From: a virus
IMG/VR virus record: IMGVR_UViG_3300045988_150219
Location: 1-42,170 of that record
DNA length: 42,170 nucleotides
Strand: one strand, 5' to 3'
This document shows positions 405 to 42,170 of this stretch, piece after piece; positions within the stretch are counted from its first letter, which is position 1; the number at the start of each line of letters is the position of its first letter. Both the position numbers and the translations under genes were made by a program. The notes under the pieces were generated by a model. That model had not been told where the DNA came from. It saw nothing but the letters and a program-made list of their open reading frames with translations, and ran no database searches.

Positions 405-859
405 ACATAATTTTGGAGGGATGCGACGGAACAGGCAAAACCACGCTGGCAAACTATCTATGTCAGGAACTCGGGTGCTATTATTGGCACGAATCTGTTC
501 CCCGCACCAAAGAAGAATACACACAGATGTTAAGCAGTGGGAATGACATCGTGTTCGACAGATTCTGCTATGGACAGTTCGTATACAACCAAGAGGCAGA
601 GCGTAAACTATCATTGCAAGACCTTATCGAACTTCAAGCCACCGTGTTCCCATACACCAAGACAATCGTGTTGTATGTGGATGCAGATAGTGAAACAATT
701 GCCAAACGAATGGAGTCCCGCAACGAATATCCCGCAGGAGTGACTTCCCATGAAGAACTTGTGCGCTGGGTGAAGAATATTCGGGGAACATATCGTTCTT
801 TGTTCCAAAGAGCAGGAACCAAATTTATAAACATAAACGGAGTAGAAAGTAAACTATGA
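401..859 (+). CDS. Thymidylate-kinase-like dNMP kinase
   Basis: N-terminal P-loop EGCDGTGKTT (the EGxDGxGKTT signature of dTMP kinases) and DRFCYGQFVY. It overlaps both neighbouring ORFs by 4 nt. Confidence 0.75.
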   Translation: MNIILEGCDGTGKTTLANYLCQELGCYYWHESVPRTKEEYTQMLSSGNDIVFDRFCYGQFVYNQEAERKLSLQDLIELQATVFPYTKTIVLYVDADSETIAKRMESRNEYPAGVTSHEELVRWVKNIRGTYRSLFQRAGTKFININGVESKL

Positions 860-1683
860 GACCGATAGAAGACAACACAATCGAATTGCGCCAAATCTTG
901 GCTGAAAACGCAACGGGTGCTTTTGAGACGGCATATTACAGGCTCAAATGTCTTGGGGAAGTCGTTGAAAGCAGGATTGGCACAACCAAACACATGTCCA
1001 ATGTAACCATAAGAATCATGAATCCGCAACATGGGATTTGTTTGAATCCTGAACGCAATTTGTCGCTCAAATACCTGTTGGGTGAAATCAACTGGTACAT
1101 GTCTGGCTCTAACCGAGTTGCGGACATCGCAAAATATGCCAAAATGTGGAATCACTTAACGGATGACGGCGAAACAGTCAACAGTGCTTATGGTTATCGC
1201 ATGTTTACCAAATTCGGATTCAACCAACTTGAATACTGTATCAACAAACTCAAAGCGAATCCGTATGACAGACAGGCTGTCATTCATATCAAAGACGCAG
1301 ACAACAAGCCCACTCTGGATACACCTTGTACTTGCCTGATTCAATTCACGGTGTATCACGGACAACTCGAAACATCCGTGTATATGCGGAGCAACGATGT
1401 ATGGCTTGGATTGCCCTATGACGTGGCATTCTTCACATATCTCCAGTCTTATGTGGCAAAGGCAATAGGACTTCCTGTTGGCGTATATACTCACACTGTT
1501 GGGGATTTACATGTGTATGAAAAACACTGGGGCAAGAATATTTCTCGCACAATCACAAATAATGAATTGTGTTGGGATGGAACTGAACTCAAAGAAGAAC
1601 TCCAACGAGTTGAAGAAGGGAATCCCCCGAATAACGAGTTGTTGAGGCAACTCTGGAGGTTGAACAATGGTAAACAAAATTAA
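856..1683 (+). CDS. Thymidylate-synthase-family pyrimidine hydroxymethylase or methylase, dCMP-hydroxymethylase-like
   Basis: TS-fold motifs NSAYGYR, DRQAVIHI, catalytic Cys in PCTCLIQF, YMRSNDVWLGLPYDVAFF and GDLHVYEKH. The Asp in LPYDVA aligns with E. coli ThyA Asn177 and T4 gp42 Asp179. Confidence 0.8.
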   Translation: MRPIEDNTIELRQILAENATGAFETAYYRLKCLGEVVESRIGTTKHMSNVTIRIMNPQHGICLNPERNLSLKYLLGEINWYMSGSNRVADIAKYAKMWNHLTDDGETVNSAYGYRMFTKFGFNQLEYCINKLKANPYDRQAVIHIKDADNKPTLDTPCTCLIQFTVYHGQLETSVYMRSNDVWLGLPYDVAFFTYLQSYVAKAIGLPVGVYTHTVGDLHVYEKHWGKNISRTITNNELCWDGTELKEELQRVEEGNPPNNELLRQLWRLNNGKQN

Positions 1684-27823: not shown

Positions 27824-28558
27824 ATGGAAAACTACACTGGCATTTTAAGACAACTTGACGCAGACGAACAAGAAGAAATGCGGAAGTACGATATGCGTAC
27901 TTCTATGAAGACTGATACGGCAGCCAAAACAATCCCCATCACCAACGAGATTATCATTCAAGGATGGTTCACATTCGCTCCGGAATACAGTCATACGAAT
28001 AACGGAGAAGAATTTTATACAGGAATCCTTGAAGTTCCAAGAGAGTCCGGAACTCACGATAAAATTCCCGTCACAATATCACAATTTTCAATCAATGAAA
28101 AACTCCAAACATACCAGACATACCGATTCAAAGGTGAGATTCGAACACGCAATATTCACAATCCCAATACGGATAGAATCGAACTTGAACTGACAGTATT
28201 TGTCACTGAACAACTTCCGGTTATTATGGGAGTTGATAACAATAAAGTGGAATTGGAAGGCTATGTATGTAAAGCCCCAATTGGGCGGAAAACCCCTTAT
28301 GGCAAGAACGTGTGTGACATTCTTTTGGCAGTTAACCGCAAATACAAGAAGTCAGATTACGTGCCATGCGTGACTTGGGGCAGATGTGCTATCAGGTCAG
28401 AACATTTTGATGTGGGCGATTGCTTGCATGTATATGGGAGACTTCAAAGCCGTGATTACATCAAAAGACATCCCGATGGGAGCAAAACCACTCATACAAC
28501 ATATGAGTTGTCAATATCCCGATTCGACTTGAAAGGAAACAACAGACATGATAAGTGA
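27824..28558 (+). CDS. SSB-like protein with two OB-fold-like halves
   Basis: Two similar segments: IIIQGWFTFAPEYSHTNNGEEFYTGILEV...KIPVTI and VELEGYVCKAPIGRKTPYGKNVCDILLAV...VPCVTWGRCA...VYGRLQSRDY. SD AAGGAGAT. Confidence 0.55.
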   Translation: MENYTGILRQLDADEQEEMRKYDMRTSMKTDTAAKTIPITNEIIIQGWFTFAPEYSHTNNGEEFYTGILEVPRESGTHDKIPVTISQFSINEKLQTYQTYRFKGEIRTRNIHNPNTDRIELELTVFVTEQLPVIMGVDNNKVELEGYVCKAPIGRKTPYGKNVCDILLAVNRKYKKSDYVPCVTWGRCAIRSEHFDVGDCLHVYGRLQSRDYIKRHPDGSKTTHTTYELSISRFDLKGNNRHDK

Positions 28559-28829: not shown

Positions 28830-29128
28830 CAGCCACCAAACTGCGTCGATATTACAATTATATACGCAGGGAGCGAGAGTGGTATGCAGACAAATCTTTT
28901 GGATTTGAATGGGAATATTGCGACAAGTGGTTAGAATACGCTGATTTGTTGTTAGCCAAGACAAAACTCCTGCATTATGTCGTGTACGATTGTTACAAGA
29001 TTCAAGATTTGGAAGAACGCTCTGGTTTCAAGACCAGAAACATATTCAGAATCCTTGCAGTTGAAGTCGATTCTGTATATAATGCTCTCCTGAAATTTGA
29101 GGAGAAGTTCTACGATGAGATGTGTTGA
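28778..29128 (+). CDS. Hypothetical protein upstream of the sigma factor gene
   Basis: ATG 28778 is an internal start of track ORF 28715-29128. Confidence 0.5.
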   Translation: MARETRTANQAPNRPSVTATKLRRYYNYIRREREWYADKSFGFEWEYCDKWLEYADLLLAKTKLLHYVVYDCYKIQDLEERSGFKTRNIFRILAVEVDSVYNALLKFEEKFYDEMC

Positions 29129-29136
29129 GGAAGATT

Positions 29137-29667
29137 ATGTCACCAACAGAATTATACCAGAACAACCAGAATCTTGTGTATTATATATACAACAAATCAT
29201 TTGCGAGATTCCCACAGAACGACTTATACAAGGAAGACATAATACAAGATGGCATGACAGCCTTGTGGATGGCTTGTACAAGTTTTGACGAATCGAAAGG
29301 AATACAGCCTACAACATACATATATCCTTGGGTGTACTTCCGTATGTTACACCGAGCAATATATTACACCAAGCATCAGTCTGAAATGGTATCCCTTCAA
29401 TCAGTCATGATGACCAATGAAGAAGGAGAACTCACCCTTGAAGATTTGTTGATGTCCAACAATCAGTTTGAGGATGAAATATGCGTGAGATATTGTATTG
29501 ATATGTGTTGTAAAGACATGTCCCATAAGGAACGTCAAATCATGGAATTGTTGGCACAAGGATACACTCAGACGCAAGTCTCCAACCGCATCGGAATATC
29601 CCAAGCACAAATATCTCGAATTCTCAACAAGTTGCGTCGCAAACTCACGGAGGAACTTCAAGAATGA
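29137..29667 (+). CDS. Sigma-70-family (ECF-size) RNA polymerase sigma factor
   Basis: Region 2: DIIQDGMTALWMACTSFDESKGIQPTTYIYPWVYFRMLHR. Region 4 HTH: ERQIMELLAQGYTQTQVSNRIGISQAQISRILNKLRRKL. ATG 29137 has a GAGGAAG SD. Confidence 0.85.
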   Translation: MSPTELYQNNQNLVYYIYNKSFARFPQNDLYKEDIIQDGMTALWMACTSFDESKGIQPTTYIYPWVYFRMLHRAIYYTKHQSEMVSLQSVMMTNEEGELTLEDLLMSNNQFEDEICVRYCIDMCCKDMSHKERQIMELLAQGYTQTQVSNRIGISQAQISRILNKLRRKLTEELQE

Positions 29668-31978: not shown

Positions 31979-33317
31979 GATTATAACTTGGGCGCATCAG
32001 AATCTTGAGTATGACAATCCCGAGTTCTACAAAGCCCAACGCATGAACAAGTGGACAGGCAACATTCCGGAGCAGATTGTACTTTGGGAAAGAATTGGTT
32101 CCGGACTTGTGCTTCCCTATGGTGTATGTAGAGAGTTGTTTCAGCGATTCGGAGGAATGCTCCAAGCGATTCCGCATATGTCAATTGGGGAACACGTTGA
32201 CTATCAGAGTCACATCAAGTTGTATGATTATCAAGAATGGGCAGTTCGACAAGCCCAACAAAACCCGAATGGTGTAATTGTTATGCCTTGCGGAGCAGGC
32301 AAGACTCAAACTGCGCTTGAACTCATATCCCGAATCGGTCTCCGGACTCTCTGGATTACTCATACACACGAACTGTTGAACCAAAGCAAGAAACGAGCCG
32401 AGGACTGTTTTGACATCAATCCTGACACTATGGGAACGATAACATCAGGCAAGATTGATGTTGGGACAAGTATAACATTTGGGACTGTTCAGACTCTTGT
32501 GAGCGTTGATTTGAGAGACTATAAGGATTACTGGGATGTTATTGTGGTGGATGAATGCCATAAGGCGGTTGGAACACCAACCAAATTGATGATGTTCTAC
32601 AAGGTTGTGTCACAACTCAACGCACCATATAAAATCGGTATCACAGCAACACCCAAGCGGTCAGACGGATTGGAAAGAAGTATGTTTGCTCTGTTGGGTG
32701 AGCCCATATGTGAGATTCCCCAGAGCGCAGTGAACTCACACACTGTTCCTGTCATGGTTCAACGAATCGACACTGAATACTATCCCAACATACACAATCC
32801 CAAGATATTCAATATGGATGGAACACTCAATTATGTCGGATTGACTAACGAGATTTGTGCGGATTCGGAGCGGAATGCCCTGATATGTGACGTGTTGTCC
32901 CGATTGGATAGCCCTTGCTTGGTGCTTTCAGATAGAGTTGAGCATTTGAAGCAACTACAATCCATGCTGGGTGAAGGGGTTGTCATATCTTCTCAAGACG
33001 TGAAAAAAGCCGATAAGGAAAACAGGAAACAATCCATGGGAATGCTTAACTCCGGACGGATTCGTTATTTGTTTGCGACCTATCAATTGGCCAAGGAAGG
33101 CTTGGACATACCCACATTGAAATATGTGGCGTTCACCACACCCAAAAAAGACAGCATAACAGTTATTCAGGCATCAGGCAGAGTGAGTCGTCAAGCCCCA
33201 GGCAAGACCCAAGGCTGTGTATTGGATTTTGTAGACTCCCGATTCAGCATGCTGGACAATTATTGGAAGTGCAGACAACGAATATATCGTTCCAAAAAAT
33301 ACAAAATTGTACAATAA
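31923..33317 (+). CDS. SF2 DNA helicase (DEAD/DEAH, ResIII-like)
   Basis: Motif I MPCGAGKTQTA, motif II VVDECHK, motif III GITATP and motif VI QASGRVSRQ. Confidence 0.85.
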   Translation: MMTQCHISSKLLIENCPNEIITWAHQNLEYDNPEFYKAQRMNKWTGNIPEQIVLWERIGSGLVLPYGVCRELFQRFGGMLQAIPHMSIGEHVDYQSHIKLYDYQEWAVRQAQQNPNGVIVMPCGAGKTQTALELISRIGLRTLWITHTHELLNQSKKRAEDCFDINPDTMGTITSGKIDVGTSITFGTVQTLVSVDLRDYKDYWDVIVVDECHKAVGTPTKLMMFYKVVSQLNAPYKIGITATPKRSDGLERSMFALLGEPICEIPQSAVNSHTVPVMVQRIDTEYYPNIHNPKIFNMDGTLNYVGLTNEICADSERNALICDVLSRLDSPCLVLSDRVEHLKQLQSMLGEGVVISSQDVKKADKENRKQSMGMLNSGRIRYLFATYQLAKEGLDIPTLKYVAFTTPKKDSITVIQASGRVSRQAPGKTQGCVLDFVDSRFSMLDNYWKCRQRIYRSKKYKIVQ

Positions 33318-33322
33318 AATAC

Positions 33323-33351
33323 TTTACTTTTTGAAAAATCAGGAATATAAT
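33323..33351 (+). promoter_or_regulatory. Conserved sigma-A-type promoter P2
   Basis: TTTACT (33323-33328), a 17-nt spacer, then TATAAT (33346-33351). It starts 6 nt after the helicase stop. Confidence 0.65.
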
Positions 33352-33375
33352 CATAGCAGAATGGAGGCAACTACA

Positions 33376-34371
33376 ATGCTGTATAAACAATCGGATGTGC
33401 CATATTGTGGCGTATCTTATGACAACATTCAGAATTCAAATCCCCAAATAAACAGGAATAATTTTGGGATTCTGTATTATTACATTCAAGAACGATACAA
33501 AATACATGTATTGAAGGACGTGTATGGCGTTCAACCACCTTGGACCAAAGACCCAATCTTGTACAAATACCGATTTACCAACATTCGACGAGAACATGAC
33601 CGTGAGACACGGTGGCTTGCTAACAACATATGCCTTAACTCGATGGACGTTGAGAACAAAATTGCGAACATCATACTGTTTCGCATGATAAATAAAAGTT
33701 CCACCTGTCAGCACTTTATGCCTTTGGATTTTGGGCAACCGATAAACTGGGAACCCATAATAGCCGTTAACAACTCTGAACATGAAGGTGCTCTGTTCAC
33801 TAACGCATTTATGGTATCTGGTATGTTGTCTGGCTGCCGCAAGTTATTACAACAGCCCAAAATGGATGCATTGTATGCTGTTGTAGCCGTGGTGAAACAA
33901 TTCTGGGACAACGGGAAGATACACCATCTGGCATCCATACAAACGAATCCTCAAGAATGGTGTGAAGTTTTGAGGGGATTTGGTGCTATGGGGGATTTCT
34001 TAACATACCAAATATGGGTGGATTATACCTATTGTCCCGAATGTCCTTGGAGCGAAAATGAATTTGTCGTGGCAGGTCCAGGATGCAAAGCAGGATTGAA
34101 CTACATATTCACCGATAGGGGTGGTATGACTTATGAAGAGTGTTTATTCTGGTTGCGCAATAACTGGGATTCACTCTGTAAACAATACGGATTCAACTGG
34201 AATCCCAATGAACTGTTTATAGATTTGCCACCACACGACCGATACATGAATGTTATGTCATTGGAGAACTGCATGTGTGAGTTAAGCAAATACATGAAAG
34301 GATTGAACAAATCAGGAAGATTACGAGCAACATATGTATATCATGGAGGAGAAACACACAATGAAAATTGA
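33376..34371 (+). CDS. aGPT-Pplase-like protein (candidate DNA base-hypermodification transferase)
   Basis: PPWTKDPILYKYRFTNIRREHDRETRW, plus GDFLTYQIWVD and AGPGCKAGL. From memory these resemble the W-T-x-D-P-I-L-x-x-Y-R-F-x-N-x-x-R-E-x-D-R-x-T family of alpha-glutamyl/putrescinyl thymine pyrophosphorylase-like proteins. ATG 33376 has a GGAGG SD and lies downstream of P2. Confidence 0.45.
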   Translation: MLYKQSDVPYCGVSYDNIQNSNPQINRNNFGILYYYIQERYKIHVLKDVYGVQPPWTKDPILYKYRFTNIRREHDRETRWLANNICLNSMDVENKIANIILFRMINKSSTCQHFMPLDFGQPINWEPIIAVNNSEHEGALFTNAFMVSGMLSGCRKLLQQPKMDALYAVVAVVKQFWDNGKIHHLASIQTNPQEWCEVLRGFGAMGDFLTYQIWVDYTYCPECPWSENEFVVAGPGCKAGLNYIFTDRGGMTYEECLFWLRNNWDSLCKQYGFNWNPNELFIDLPPHDRYMNVMSLENCMCELSKYMKGLNKSGRLRATYVYHGGETHNEN

Positions 34372-34864
34372 TAGGGATTTGTTTTGTGAAGCACTTAATT
34401 TGGCACAAATGTACGCAGACAACAACAGCACATGCACCAAGACATCTGTTGGTTGCGTCATAATCAAATACGAAACAGAATACCACAATGGCGTTCTGCT
34501 GGGGATTGGCGCAAACAGCGGAGAAGAGAATTGCAAAGAACTCGGATGTTTACGTGTAAGCATGTACGGAGACAACAGCAAATCTCATCGCAGCACTTGC
34601 CGTTGTAAGCATAGTGAAATCAACGCTCTTGCATGTGCTGAATCCCAACACCGCAGCGTGAAAGGTGCTATGGCGTTTGTCACTCGTTATCCTTGCATCA
34701 ATTGCGCCAAAGCCTTAACCAAAGCAGGAATCAAGAAAGTCGTGTATGGGCGACAATTCCCCATTGAGGAAGAGACAAAACAATGGTTCGATTCGCATGG
34801 TGTGGAGTACTACCATATGAAAGATTGGGCAACTGATACAGTTATTCGTGACACAAACAACTGA
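34361..34864 (+). CDS. dCMP deaminase (cytidine/deoxycytidylate deaminase zinc-binding family)
   Basis: Zinc motifs HSEINAL and PCINCAKAL. ATG 34361 has a GGAGGAG SD and overlaps the upstream stop by 11 nt. Confidence 0.85.
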   Translation: MKIDRDLFCEALNLAQMYADNNSTCTKTSVGCVIIKYETEYHNGVLLGIGANSGEENCKELGCLRVSMYGDNSKSHRSTCRCKHSEINALACAESQHRSVKGAMAFVTRYPCINCAKALTKAGIKKVVYGRQFPIEEETKQWFDSHGVEYYHMKDWATDTVIRDTNN

Positions 34865-39412: not shown

Positions 39413-39433
39413 TTTTATATGGAGGACAATATC

Positions 39434-40063
39434 ATGTCACAATCTATGGACCTTGATTTCACAGGTGTAACCACCAGCAACCTTATCCCCGAAGGCACTC
39501 ATGTAGTGCGTATATCTGCTGCGGATTTCAGCAAAGCACAAACAGGCTCTGACCAACTTGAAGTTGAGTTTGAGAACGGCGATGGAGCCACCCGCAAAGG
39601 TTGGTTCTCGCTTGTTCCCCAAGCACTCTGGAAAGTGAAAGGATTCTTGGAAGCAATCGGAATCTCCGCAGATGGAAGAATCAAACTCAACACCAAGAAT
39701 CTTATCGGCAAATACTGCAAAATTGTTGTAGAACCCGACAAGAATGATTCTACAAGATTCATTATCACCAAGTATCTCAAAGCCGAATCGAACAACACAG
39801 TTGCGCCTCAGATGTATGCTCCCGCAGCACCGTTAACATATGACCCTGCTATGATGGCTCCCGCAGGTCCTGCTGCGCCTGTTCAACAGAATGTTCAACC
39901 TGCTCCTGTTGCACAACAGCCCACGACTCCTGCACCCGCACCTGCTATGCATTTGCCCTGGGAAACGGCACAACAACCTGCTCAACCCGTGCAGCAACCC
40001 ATGCAGCAACCCGCAGCACAACAACCCGCATCAATGCCTACACCGCCTTGGCTGGTGAAATAA
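39434..40063 (+). CDS. DUF669-like (SSB-like) protein with a long P/Q/A-rich tail
   Basis: Position after the AAA_24 ATPase. NLIPEGTHVVRISAADFSK is typical of the DUF669 N-terminus. The C-terminal ~85 aa are low complexity (APAAP...QQPAQPVQQPMQQPAAQQP), ending PPWLVK. Confidence 0.6.
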   Translation: MSQSMDLDFTGVTTSNLIPEGTHVVRISAADFSKAQTGSDQLEVEFENGDGATRKGWFSLVPQALWKVKGFLEAIGISADGRIKLNTKNLIGKYCKIVVEPDKNDSTRFIITKYLKAESNNTVAPQMYAPAAPLTYDPAMMAPAGPAAPVQQNVQPAPVAQQPTTPAPAPAMHLPWETAQQPAQPVQQPMQQPAAQQPASMPTPPWLVK

Positions 40064-40084: not shown

Positions 40085-41044
40085 ATGAACATACCCAACG
40101 ACACTGGCAACATGTGGAGATTAGACCGCTATGTTGAATATTACAACATACGGCATTCCCAGAATGATGGAGATGTCCATAATCTCGGAATCGTATGCCA
40201 AGACGCAGACCTTGACACAAAAGTGTGGATGGCATTCTTGTATTCGACTTGTTACAGTGTTGCCACGACATGTTTCTTGTTTACGCATTTCCCTTCCATT
40301 GAGTATGCCACCGAATCCCGATTGAGACAATTCTGGGCAGAATACAAATCGAAACTCATATTCCAATCCGACAGAAGATATGTGAAGAACATGGATAAAT
40401 TCTGCGACATAGTTATGTCGTACAAGGAAAAGGTTGCTGGCAGACGGCAATTCGAGATTTGCGAAGAATTGGGGTGGAACCAAACTGCAATCTACAAGTG
40501 GTTCACTTCTGTGTATTATTGTGGAAGATTCTCTGCCATGCTATTCATGGAAGCAGTTTACGGCTTGATGGGAAAACCCTTAACACAAGAAAGTTATCTT
40601 GATTGGAATTCCTGCAAGACTTGTTCACAAGGATTGCTGACAATCTCGTATCAAGATGACCTTGTAGCGGAAGTAGAACACAGGGATTTCACTCCCCAAG
40701 AAATAGAATGCCTCAAAATAACGCTGGAATATGTTATGCGGTACACACAATCCCATCTGGATTACCCAATCAATTTCAGTCGAATAATTGGGTATCTGTG
40801 CTCATATTTCAAGTTGTACAAACAAACGAGATATTTGGAATACTACACAGACAGAAGATTGGAAGAACTGCTTCACTACAAGAAGGTGTTCCCAGAGTCA
40901 CCCCTGTGGGATTACTTGTTTGAGATTCGTTACAAAAATGTTCCTCATAGCATTCTTGGGGAACTGAATGGATGGAGCGGAATCCGCAAAGAGAAGTGTA
41001 AGGAATTTGTGACTTATGGCAAAATTGACTGTAATCAACCTTAG
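40085..41044 (+). CDS. Second aGPT-Pplase-like protein (different clade), candidate DNA transferase
   Basis: 319-aa helix-rich protein with FQSDRRY and GRFSAMLFMEAVYG motifs. It overlaps the downstream P-loop kinase-like ORF by 29 nt. The family call comes from memory and gene context only. Confidence 0.4.
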   Translation: MNIPNDTGNMWRLDRYVEYYNIRHSQNDGDVHNLGIVCQDADLDTKVWMAFLYSTCYSVATTCFLFTHFPSIEYATESRLRQFWAEYKSKLIFQSDRRYVKNMDKFCDIVMSYKEKVAGRRQFEICEELGWNQTAIYKWFTSVYYCGRFSAMLFMEAVYGLMGKPLTQESYLDWNSCKTCSQGLLTISYQDDLVAEVEHRDFTPQEIECLKITLEYVMRYTQSHLDYPINFSRIIGYLCSYFKLYKQTRYLEYYTDRRLEELLHYKKVFPESPLWDYLFEIRYKNVPHSILGELNGWSGIRKEKCKEFVTYGKIDCNQP

Positions 41045-41594
41045 AGGCACATCAGGTAGTGGGAAGACGTACATTGTCAAGCAAATCCTGGCTCATGGGA
41101 ATTGGTCCAGATGGACTGACAGCAATGGAAAAATCCTTGGGTATTACAACGAATCCAATCGATGGGCAATTGTTGGTTCTTATGAGACTCCTTGTGGGGG
41201 TTGCGATACAATCAAGACCCAAGCGGAAGTCAAATCCCGAATCTACATGTTGCTTCAATGGGGATACAATGTTCTGTTTGAGGGACTTGTAATCAGTACC
41301 ATTACACAAGGCTGGCTGGATTTTGCGAACTCAATAAAACCCCAAGCCAACACCATGTTTTGTTACTTGAACACCCCGATTGAAACTTGTATTCAGCAAG
41401 TTCGTTCCAGAAGAGAGAGCAACGGAAAATCACCCGAGTTCAATACAGACAATACTGTTAACAGAGTTAAGTCCATACAATCCACTCGGGATAAACTCCG
41501 GAATGCAGGATTCTGGTGTGTGGAAGGAAGTTCCTCAGACATACTGCATTACTTGAATCAATTCTTTGGGATAGGAGGAGATTTGGATGTTTAG
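41016..41594 (+). CDS. P-loop kinase, candidate 5-hydroxymethylpyrimidine DNA kinase (5-HMUDK-like)
   Basis: Walker A GTSGSGKTY at residues 11-19 and a GSYETPCGGCD motif. It is sandwiched by overlaps between the aGPT-Pplase-like and GT-A-like ORFs. Confidence 0.5.
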   Translation: MAKLTVINLRGTSGSGKTYIVKQILAHGNWSRWTDSNGKILGYYNESNRWAIVGSYETPCGGCDTIKTQAEVKSRIYMLLQWGYNVLFEGLVISTITQGWLDFANSIKPQANTMFCYLNTPIETCIQQVRSRRESNGKSPEFNTDNTVNRVKSIQSTRDKLRNAGFWCVEGSSSDILHYLNQFFGIGGDLDV

Positions 41595-42170
41595 ACGAGA
41601 ACAAATGGAGTATCTCTTGAATACAGCCAACGGAATTGGACCAATATGTATTCCCACCTATAAGCGGTGGAGCCGAGAAGACAACAAAGCACTATCGTTC
41701 TTGGAGTTATGTCAACCCGATATTCGGGATAACATACACATATTTGTTCGTCCGGAGCAAGCCCAAGCATATCACGAATCGTTCCCGTGGGTACACATTG
41801 TTGTATTGCCAGCCCAGATACAAGGGCTGGCAAGCACTCGGGAATACATATGCTGGTATGTATTGAATGTGCTGCATGAACCCATATTCATGGATATGGA
41901 TGATGACGTGACTTATCTCTTGTATCTGTGGTATGATGAAATCAAGCAGTTTTCCCATTATTCCAGAGGGGTTGAACAACGCCACTCTGAGACGATTCGA
42001 TTGGGATTCAATTTGGCACAATACGTGTTCAACAAAGCCCCGAAAACTGTGTTGGGCGGACTTGCCCGAAAACGATTCATCCACAAACCCGAAAACTCTC
42101 AGCGCATGGCAAGTATCAATCAAGGAGCCACTCCCCGACAGTGTATGTTTGTGAATGCCCAGCGATTGGA
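41587..42170 (+). CDS. 5' part of the junction-spanning ORF (continues to 404); GT-A-like glycosyltransferase candidate
   Basis: ATG 41587 lies 5 nt after AGGAGGAG and overlaps the kinase stop. The frame is open to the window end by hand translation. Carries ICIPTYKRW (a GT2-like first strand) and FMDMDDDV (DxD-like). It is absent from the track because it has no stop within the window. Confidence 0.6.
   Translation, partial: MFRREQMEYLLNTANGIGPICIPTYKRWSREDNKALSFLELCQPDIRDNIHIFVRPEQAQAYHESFPWVHIVVLPAQIQGLASTREYICWYVLNVLHEPIFMDMDDDVTYLLYLWYDEIKQFSHYSRGVEQRHSETIRLGFNLAQYVFNKAPKTVLGGLARKRFIHKPENSQRMASINQGATPRQCMFVNAQRL
42116..42170. repeat. Terminal direct repeat, copy 2; identical to 1-55
   Basis: Exact 55/55 identity with the window start. 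Confidence 0.95.

Follow-up and report, generated by a model that had tools for sequence, protein, structure and literature searches.

The DNA analysed here, termed the window, is the complete 42,170-nucleotide stretch of the IMG/VR virus record IMGVR_UViG_3300045988_150219, and the gene in question, at positions 856-1683, encodes a homologue of thymidylate synthase (TS) of 275 amino acids with an ATG start; all window coordinates given below refer to the plus strand. Judged from its sequence and its relatives, this enzyme is very probably a deoxycytidine monophosphate (dCMP) 5-hydroxymethylase, i.e. a 5-hydroxymethyl-dCMP (5hm-dCMP) synthase. Its gene belongs to a cluster that also encodes a kinase resembling 5-hydroxymethyldeoxyuridine (5-hmdU) DNA kinase (5-HMUDK-like), an amino acid:DNA transferase (AADT) and a TET-associated DNA glycosyltransferase (TAGT), and the kinase-plus-AADT chemistry has so far been described only for thymine, by way of 5-hydroxymethyluracil (5hmU). 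The phage either decorates cytosine by an undescribed route or makes hydroxymethyl-uracil by an unusual detour, and both leading readings are a new variation on the known hypermodification pathways. We tentatively propose that a widespread, uncultured lineage of ~40-kb phages may direct a 5-HMUDK-type kinase and an AADT at 5-hydroxymethylcytosine (5hmC), yielding aminoacyl-methylcytosines alongside TAGT-made glycosyl-hydroxymethylcytosine (glycosyl-hmC). The cytosine-type TS extends across the whole lineage: it is found in dozens of IMG/VR contigs and in the 120 nearest database homologues. Samples that yielded relatives include SRR25571423, SRR27755823 and IMG 3300045988.

The open reading frame (ORF) at 856-1683 matches the Pfam family PF00303 (Thymidylat_synt) with 118 bits (cut-off 24.3, E=5.1e-34). 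The central residue is Asp189, encoded by the codon GAC at 1420-1422 within the peptide YMRSNDVWLGLPYDVAFFTYL (TS residues 176-196, nucleotides 1381-1443), at the position of Asn177 in E. coli ThyA and of Asp179 in T4 gp42. Three independent alignments agree on this placement. HMMER sets 'glpyd' of the window over 'gvpfn' of the solved thymidylate synthases and pairs Asp189 with an Asp of MilA; MAFFT, run with E. coli ThyA, T4 gp42, SPO1 gp29 and Ab18 ORF14, puts Asp189 and T4 Asp179 in one column, in which SPO1 and Ab18 have Asn; and a MAFFT alignment of 159 sequences also sets Asp189 opposite E. coli Asn177. An earlier note on this DNA, made from the sequence alone, had proposed an Asp at the ThyA Asn177 position, and all three alignments bear it out, including the one with T4 gp42 and SPO1 gp29, where the residue is Asp and not Asn.

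The neighbouring active-site positions point in the same direction. Read at E. coli positions 58/92/93/94/143/146/147/169/177, the signature of the window TS is E S A Y D C T D D (residues E77, S110, Y112, D155, C158, T159, D181 and D189, with Ala between S110 and Y112), that of T4 gp42 is E S N Y D C T D D, and the homologues of phage VPE25 and of an Agathobaculum phage share the window pattern. The dUMP (deoxyuridine monophosphate) hydroxymethylase type reads E A P Y D C N D N in SPO1 gp29 and LysYB1, and E G A Y D C N D N in M6 gp58 and Ab18 ORF14 (PaMx11-like); E. coli ThyA reads E P V Y L C H D N. The catalytic residues of the family are kept: C158, E77, R178 and Y112 correspond to E. coli Cys146, Glu58, Arg166 and Tyr94. 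The segment D155-T-P-C158-T159 (1318-1332) unites a hydroxymethylase marker (D155, at E. coli L143), the catalytic cysteine and a cytosine-type marker (T159, at E. coli H147), while S110-A-Y112 (1183-1191) is equivalent to Ser94-x-Tyr96 of the T4 dCMP hydroxymethylase (dCH), where the Ser coordinates water and the Tyr contacts cytosine N4. In dUMP hydroxymethylases, Ser110 is replaced by Ala or Gly. Thr at position 147 is common to the window TS, T4 gp42 and MilA, as opposed to Asn147 in dUMP hydroxymethylases, and where all four dUMP-type references compared combine Asn177 with Asn147, the window has Asp189 and Thr159. The specificity positions 92, 147 and 177 are all in the cytosine (T4/MilA) state.

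Published work on other systems gives these positions their meaning. Positions 147 and 177 were the top discriminators of cytosine-modified from unmodified contigs in MetaGPA (PMC8670742). In T4 dCH, Asp143 and the Ser-x-Tyr motif are needed for hydroxymethylation, and the D179N substitution abolishes 5hm-dCMP formation (PMC6400193). The water molecule that leads to a hydroxymethyl rather than a methyl product is held in place by an acidic residue at 143 together with a Ser two positions ahead of Tyr94 (PMC6400193, PMC13326640). The earlier proposal that the motifs are nearer to T4 gp42 than to ThyA holds at the level of the active site and fails for overall similarity: the window TS scores 172 bits against its homologue in Agathobaculum phage AB434P2, 150 against VPE25, 128 against Ab18 ORF14, 100 against M6 gp58, 96 against SPO1 gp29, 80 against E. 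coli ThyA and 67 against T4 gp42, so that it is only in its active-site motifs that the window TS resembles gp42.

Conservation among homologues argues that the Asp is not there by chance. Asp189 and the signature are invariant in 120/120 nearest homologues retrieved from 5.8 billion proteins, Asp189 is invariant in a 37-sequence alignment, and D143/C146/T147/D169/D177 (D-C-T-D-D) is present in 145 of the 159 aligned sequences, which comprise the 150 nearest cluster representatives at 50% identity (from 1.84 billion) and nine references. In a neighbour-joining (NJ) tree rooted on ThyA, the four dUMP hydroxymethylases form an exclusive clade, and the window, VPE25 and AB434P2 enzymes fall in a 52-member clade with zero Asn-type sequences. 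The AlphaFold2 model of the TS, built from 37 homologues (pLDDT 94.8, pTM 0.92), has the CMP hydroxymethylase MilA as its best fold match (E about 1e-21, TM 0.77-0.80), ahead of thymidylate synthases, a phage dCMP hydroxylase and T4 dCH, at about 1e-16 each. Many Asp-type homologues among the cluster representatives are longer proteins, of 470-550 amino acids, with the TS domain at the N-terminus (P0147, P0150-P0152, P0157, P0162, P0163, P0166 and others).

An experimental anchor is provided by Enterococcus phage VPE25, whose TS homologue has the same signature and adjoins a dUTPase-like gene and a gene for a T4-type beta-glucosyltransferase (PF09198, E=8.6e-62). VPE25 DNA is resistant to bisulfite and to MspI and is cut by PvuRts1I (Duerkop et al., PMC4999554), a behaviour that indicates glucosyl-hydroxymethylcytosine. 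This is indirect evidence that the enzymes of the window/VPE25 clade would feed 5hmC into DNA. Since Asp177 is conserved together with the other cytosine-type markers, and since the window TS shares a clade with VPE25, whose DNA is reported to be cytosine-modified, dCMP specificity is well supported by inference. The product had been left in the earlier note as 5-hm-dCMP or 5-methyl-dCMP; dCMP remains the probable substrate, and of the two products the methylated one is disfavoured, because Asp143 and Ser-x-Tyr are hydroxymethylase markers. The closest cultured relative by TS is the gut phage AB434P2 (41% identity), whose homologue (L002, 3838-4500) carries the annotation 'deoxyuridylate hydroxymethyltransferase'; its signature, ESCY-DCT-D-D, predicts a dCMP enzyme instead. 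The pair at E. coli positions 147/177, Thr/Asp versus Asn/Asn, provides an annotation rule that separates dCMP-type from dUMP-type hydroxymethylases.

The genomic company of the TS gene is that of thymidine hypermodification, as the earlier note had it, and the context is larger than noted there: a PF18748 kinase, a PF18723 helical protein, a PF18724 AADT and a dCMP deaminase are found, together with a TAGT gene that had been missed at the junction of the window. The first 55 bases (1-55) repeat the last 55 (42116-42170) exactly, and the window, read on this ground as circular, is an apparently complete, circularly closed phage genome of 42,115 bp. The cluster crosses the junction in the order AADT, 5-HMUDK-like kinase, TAGT, dNMP (deoxynucleoside monophosphate) kinase, TS, a 108-residue ORF and an HAD phosphatase; its genes are contiguous and most neighbours overlap. 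An independent Logan contig shows the genes for AADT, HMUDK, TAGT (310 amino acids), kinase, TS, the 108-residue ORF and a 109-residue ORF in a contiguous arrangement. The genes of the helical-domain protein and the deaminase lie ~7 kb upstream of the cluster.

The 5-HMUDK-like P-loop kinase (41016-41594) belongs to the nucleobase hydroxymethyl DNA kinase family (PF18748, E=3.6e-12, 46.6 bits, cut-off 27) and is 31-33% identical to the 5-hmdU DNA kinases PaMx11 gp49 and M6 gp54 over 82-96% of its length (tblastn, E down to 1e-17). Used alone as a query against viral contigs, it returned no relatives, and the TS-homologue alignment was used instead. The AADT (40085-41044) is assigned to aGPT-Pplase clade 2 (PF18724, E=1.7e-10, 41.4 bits, cut-off 26.2); in tblastn it matches the serine:DNA transferase ViI gp247 over 93% of the query (E=6e-9) and the homologue of a Lysinibacillus phage (LysYB1) at E=5e-35, and it resembles the ViI type more closely than it does the M6 and PaMx11 glycine transferases. 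Its Cys239 aligns with the essential catalytic cysteine, in one of four invariant columns across nine AADTs. A sequence search of the AADT against solved structures, intended to yield base contacts from PaMx11 gp46, gave no significant match.

The TAGT, a DNA glycosyltransferase of the GT-A, JGT-like type, lies between the HMUDK-like and dNMP kinases. Its N-terminal part is encoded at 41587-42115 and its C-terminal part at 1-404, as obtained by reconstructing the ORF across the junction; the linear ORF list contains it only as a fragment of 124 amino acids at 30-404. The whole protein has 310 residues, an acidic motif MDMDDDV and matches to PF20691 (E=1.2e-11, 45.4 bits, cut-off 27.5) and to the glycosyltransferase family phrog_4519 (8e-19). 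A close relative, L005, has no TAGT. The tested phage GT-A DNA glycosyltransferases act on 5hmC, and JGT, a structural homologue of TAGT, acts on 5hmU (bioRxiv 10.1101/2023.12.21.572611). TAGT was considered as a decisive sign of cytosine and rejected as such, as phage members use 5hmC but JGT uses 5hmU; it is neutral on which base is modified.

A stand-alone 'HMUDK helical domain' protein (33307-34371, PF18723, E=2.9e-57), homologous to Ab18 ORF13, is encoded by a gene overlapping the start of that for a zinc-dependent dCMP deaminase of the ComEB/T4 cd type (34334-34864, PF00383, E=1.9e-14; phrog_174). The helical-domain gene overlaps or directly precedes the deaminase gene in 24 related loci (the pairs listed are in L005, L093, L094, L109, L113-L117, L119-L124, L131, L132, L135, L136 and L140), including TAGT-only genomes, which have neither the P-loop kinase nor an AADT. 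For this reason the name given by Pfam may be misleading, and the protein may instead have a part in nucleotide metabolism. M6 gp55, located directly after the kinase, looks like the counterpart of Ab18 ORF13 by position only, and it was dispensable in the published reconstitution.

The remaining genes of the cluster flank the TS. A small thymidylate-kinase-like dNMP kinase (401-859, PF02223, E=1.2e-12) precedes it, the stop codon overlapping the TS start (ATGA), and most related loci likewise have a dNMP kinase gene immediately before that of the Asp-type TS. Downstream come a conserved 108-residue ORF (1667-1993) without family match and a small HAD-family phosphatase (1997-2326; phrog_1238, phrog_24386; PDB 2obb at 6e-22), which is 42% identical to SPO1 gp30.2 (E=4e-21), a protein whose gene adjoins that of the SPO1 dUMP hydroxymethylase. 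The phosphatase gene is located 3' of the TS gene in 38 related loci; it has this place in the kinase/TAGT lineage and is absent from the relatives linked to GT-B glycosyltransferases. The RefSeq and PHROG label 'phosphoheptose isomerase' looks wrong for such an HAD phosphatase with a DxDGT motif, as observed for the window protein and for that of L004 (25565-25969).

A scan of IMG/VR with the TS-homologue alignment gave 80 loci, taken with 10-kb flanks, in which partner genes were identified by iterated local profile searches; since PYD was part of the patterns used for the scan, only Asp-type loci could be retrieved. The small kinase is in most cases part of the core around the Asp-type TS, to which the HAD phosphatase also belongs in one lineage. 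GT-B glycosyltransferases, sought with a profile seeded with the T4 and VPE25 beta-glucosyltransferases, occur in about 33 loci, TAGT in 18, AADT in 17 and the HMUDK-like kinase in 26, a count that includes reference loci and some cross-matches of dNMP kinases. Several loci carry TAGT, HMUDK-like kinase and AADT together, like the window. The post-replicative partners of this core are thus interchangeable, either GT-B, TAGT, or kinase and AADT, beside the same Asp-type TS, which argues that all these enzymes use the TS product. The loci bearing a kinase or a TAGT share the replication-module synteny of the window and therefore represent one phage lineage. In four loci (L037 7639-9105; L039 and L043 7501-9105; L059 492-2018) the gene immediately preceding the Asp-type TS encodes a single AADT-kinase fusion polypeptide, and for L037 Pfam confirms both domains. 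In L024 (7762-9352; also L025 and L117), a 331-residue HMUDK-like kinase with an extra N-terminal region occurs without AADT, adjoining a dUTPase/dCTP-deaminase-like gene, a dNMP kinase gene and an Asp-type TS gene, and could be a kinase-only variant of the pathway. Its dUTPase-like gene was considered as a dCTPase and dropped, as the same family also matches SPO1.

From these elements a complete chain can be proposed, which is our leading candidate, held at just under even confidence: 5hmC would be incorporated into the DNA and then glycosylated, phosphorylated and aminoacylated. Cys158 of the TS would attack C6 of dCMP, Asp189 with Thr159 and Tyr112 would read the N3/N4 face of cytosine, and methylene-tetrahydrofolate would donate the carbon. 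Asp155 and Ser110 would place a water molecule, so that the exocyclic methylene is hydrated to CH2OH and not reduced to CH3. The translationally coupled dNMP kinase (401-859), followed by the host NDP (nucleoside diphosphate) kinase, would raise 5hm-dCMP to the triphosphate, and the family-A polymerase of the phage would build the base into DNA. There, 5hmC would be the substrate of the three enzymes encoded immediately upstream of this kinase and TS: TAGT would put a sugar on some residues, the 5-HMUDK-like kinase would phosphorylate the hydroxymethyl group of others, and Cys239 of the AADT would attack C6, with expulsion of the phosphate and attachment of an amino acid. This would yield glycosyl- and aminoacyl-methylcytosines, and the deaminase would, as in T4, supply dUMP for dTMP synthesis. 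The earlier note had called a kinase and transferase route on cytosine not described; phosphorylation of 5hmC by such kinases has in fact been proposed for TET contigs (PMC8256090), as a hypothesis that was not demonstrated, and only in the latter sense does the statement hold.

Several observations weigh against this chain. All 5-HMUDK and AADT enzymes characterised so far use 5hmU, DNA with 5hmC is not phosphorylated by the commercial 5-HMUDK (PMC6457204), and the TET-like phage enzymes linked to P-loop kinases and AADTs, at one time suggested as a source of 5hmC for a kinase (PMC8256090), have since been classified as thymine dioxygenases (PMC13229309). In an NJ tree the kinases of Asp-type and Asn-type genomes are interleaved, and a comparison of their columns yielded only two variable ones with disjoint residues and no convincing pattern; the kinase sequences thus give no hint of a switch in specificity. 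The essential Glu near the catalytic cysteine, found 4-5 residues upstream in the AADTs of M6, ViI, L005 and L067, is not evident in the window AADT (RIIGYLC), in a part of the alignment that is gappy. No dCTPase/dUTPase homologue was found by Pfam and PHROG scans or with local profiles seeded with the VPE25 dUTPase and the Ab18 MazG, several short ORFs being unscanned, and replacement of cytosine may therefore be partial. Finally, a dCMP deaminase is encoded in every related genome with a readable region, which keeps alive a detour through hm-dUMP.

This detour, unlikely in our estimate though the most credible of the rivals, reverses the order of events: the TS would make 5hm-dCMP, the deaminase (34334-34864) would convert it to 5hm-dUMP, and the base would be incorporated as 5hmU and processed by the classical kinase and AADT, possibly also by TAGT. 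In a variant, deamination would be partial and a single hydroxymethylase would give rise to both hmC- and hmU-derived bases. Such a route reconciles two priors, that an Asp-type TS means dCMP and that HMUDK and AADT mean 5hmU, and dCMP deaminases are known to accept 5-substituted dCMP. The deaminase gene is just upstream of that of the primase or polymerase in 31/34 lineage loci, and the overlap or contact with the helical-domain gene in 24 loci, as well as the likeness of the HAD phosphatase to the SPO1 protein and its absence from GT-B-linked relatives, are on the same side. However, TAGT-only relatives have the same deaminase just as regularly, and most GT-B-linked ones encode a deaminase; T4 combines cd with gp42 and makes no hmU; an Asn-type enzyme would serve for hm-dUMP, yet there is none in the lineage of the window, though kinase modules seem to be exchanged with Asn-type phages; and the route is indirect, with no described precedent. 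A search for a relative with kinase and AADT but without deaminase at first gave 15/23 loci without deaminase within 10 kb. After contig extension no kinase-bearing relative lacked it, the gene being upstream of primase/polymerase in every case. The deaminase is a core gene of the lineage and not linked to the kinase; being core whatever the modification module, it neither supports nor excludes the detour.

The proposed action of the kinase on 5hmC in DNA would also fall if the HMUDK-like enzyme worked on free nucleotides, as a second hm-dNMP/dNDP kinase, and if the AADT had some other substrate, leaving DNA with hmC and glycosyl-hmC only. The HMUDK-like kinase and the dNMP kinase are indeed related P-loop proteins, those of the window (41016-41594 and 401-859) cross-matching each other's profiles, one of which is partly contaminated, and L140 and L113 have an HMUDK-like gene but no separate dNMP kinase. 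This explanation is nevertheless improbable: the AADT and the kinase occur together and, in L037, L039, L043 and L059, even as one polypeptide, the fusion fits the known two-step chemistry on DNA (PMC8989533), and Pfam places the kinase in the DNA-kinase family above cut-off.

That the Asp is not decisive and that the TS is a dUMP hydroxymethylase like those of M6, PaMx11, ViI and SPO1, in an ordinary thymidine hypermodification pathway, is highly improbable. Genomic company would suit such an enzyme, as would overall similarity, higher to the Ab18, M6 and SPO1 enzymes (96-128 bits) than to T4 gp42 (67 bits), and the automated label of the Agathobaculum phage homologue says the same. Against this, positions 92, 147 and 177 are jointly and invariantly in the T4/MilA state, the enzymes proven to use dUMP group apart in the NJ tree, the VPE25 relative is found together with cytosine modification, and the D179N exchange in T4 dCH (PMC6400193) costs that enzyme its 5hm-dCMP formation. 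Six phage genomes with HMUDK and AADT were checked, those of Ab18, PaMx11, Epa5, M6, LysYB1 and Simon (the last an unverified sewage-derived record), and all have an Asn-type TS. A TS beside such clusters has been labelled 'dUMP hydroxymethylase', specificity at position 177 not being discussed (PMC8989533).

The least probable alternative is another C5 product, either 5-methyl-dCMP (XP12-type) or 5-hydroxy-dCMP (RB69/DLP3 type): Asp177 is common to all dCMP-using TS homologues and the fold search also returns the phage dCMP hydroxylase 9iqu, but the window has Asp155 and the Ser-x-Tyr water site in place of the bulky, water-excluding hydrophobic residue at 143 of ThyS/dCMP methylases, its retention of Asp181 at 169 disfavours a 5-hydroxy-dCMP synthase, of which D169N is the mark (PMC13326640), and the neighbouring kinase needs a hydroxymethyl group.

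If the 5hmC chain is true, the thymidine hypermodification pathway would gain its first counterpart for cytosine; cytosine modified with amino acids or phosphate would offer new enzymes for 5hmC tagging and sequencing, and would represent a new class of restriction- and CRISPR-resistant DNA. If the detour is true, hydroxymethylation would come first and deamination second on the way to 5hm-dUMP, and both pyrimidines might be modified by means of one hydroxymethylase.

In the rest of the genome, the large terminase, portal, major head, tape measure and tail protein genes are on the minus strand. According to Pfam and PHROG scans, the replication module on the plus strand encodes a sigma factor, a family-A polymerase, a helicase, a D5-type primase, a PD-(D/E)XK exonuclease, Sak4 and a single-stranded DNA-binding protein (SSB); the listed genes include two SSB-like ones (27824-28558 and 39419-40063) and a phage sigma-70-family factor (29122-29667). 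The genome lacks tRNA genes. No pyridoxal-phosphate decarboxylase, radical-SAM protein, FAD oxidoreductase or acetyltransferase was detected among those ORFs of the window that were scanned. A 16-kb portion of the window, searched for near-identical DNA in 50,697 phage records, gave zero matches, and thus no annotated close relative to lean on.

The comparison with known systems starts with T4 gp42 (PDB 1B5E, 1B49), which shares the TS fold and the active-site signature (E. coli Glu58, Ser-x-Tyr, Asp143, Cys146, Thr147, Asp169, Asp177) with the window TS and stands beside the same logic of dNMP kinase and DNA glycosyltransferase. It is, in contrast, the weakest in sequence of the references compared (28% identity over 170 residues), and in T4 it is paired with a dCTPase and with alpha- and beta-glucosyltransferases of GT-B type, without DNA kinase or AADT. 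MilA (PDB 5B6D, 5JNH) is the best sequence match among solved structures (E=5e-26), with Asp at 143 and 177 and the Cys-Thr pair, but it belongs to bacterial secondary metabolism (mildiomycin), prefers the ribonucleotide CMP and has no link to DNA. RB69 gp48 and DLP3 gp80 resemble the window TS by Asp177, an acidic residue at 143 and flanking thymidylate-kinase-like and HAD-like phosphatase genes (PMC13326640), and differ by the diagnostic D169N, where the window keeps Asp181. The VPE25/VFW enzymes belong to the same NJ clade and are 42% identical to the window TS over the core; unlike the window, VPE25 is an 86-kb phage of another lineage, with a GT-B beta-glucosyltransferase and a dUTPase-like gene and without HMUDK, AADT or TAGT.

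The post-replicative enzymes have their closest parallels elsewhere. The thymidine pathways of M6, PaMx11, ViI and SP10 (Lee et al. 2018, 2021) lead from a dUMP hydroxymethylase through 5-HMUDK to AADT. They use the same kinase and AADT families as the window, with the AADT cysteine conserved and with a helical-domain protein and a dCMP deaminase nearby, whereas the TS of the six Asn-type genomes listed above combines Asn177 and Asn147 where the window has Asp and Thr, and the window has a TAGT in place of the tailoring enzymes (decarboxylase, radical-SAM protein, oxidoreductase, acetyltransferase) sought among its scanned ORFs. In the phage GT-A (TAGT/JGT-like) pathways with ThyS or 5mYOX (bioRxiv 10.1101/2023.12.21.572611), TAGT adjoins a TS homologue and a dCMP deaminase is encoded in the genome, as in the window. 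Kinase and AADT partners are not reported in the passages of that survey consulted here, whereas the window has both modules in one operon-like cluster.

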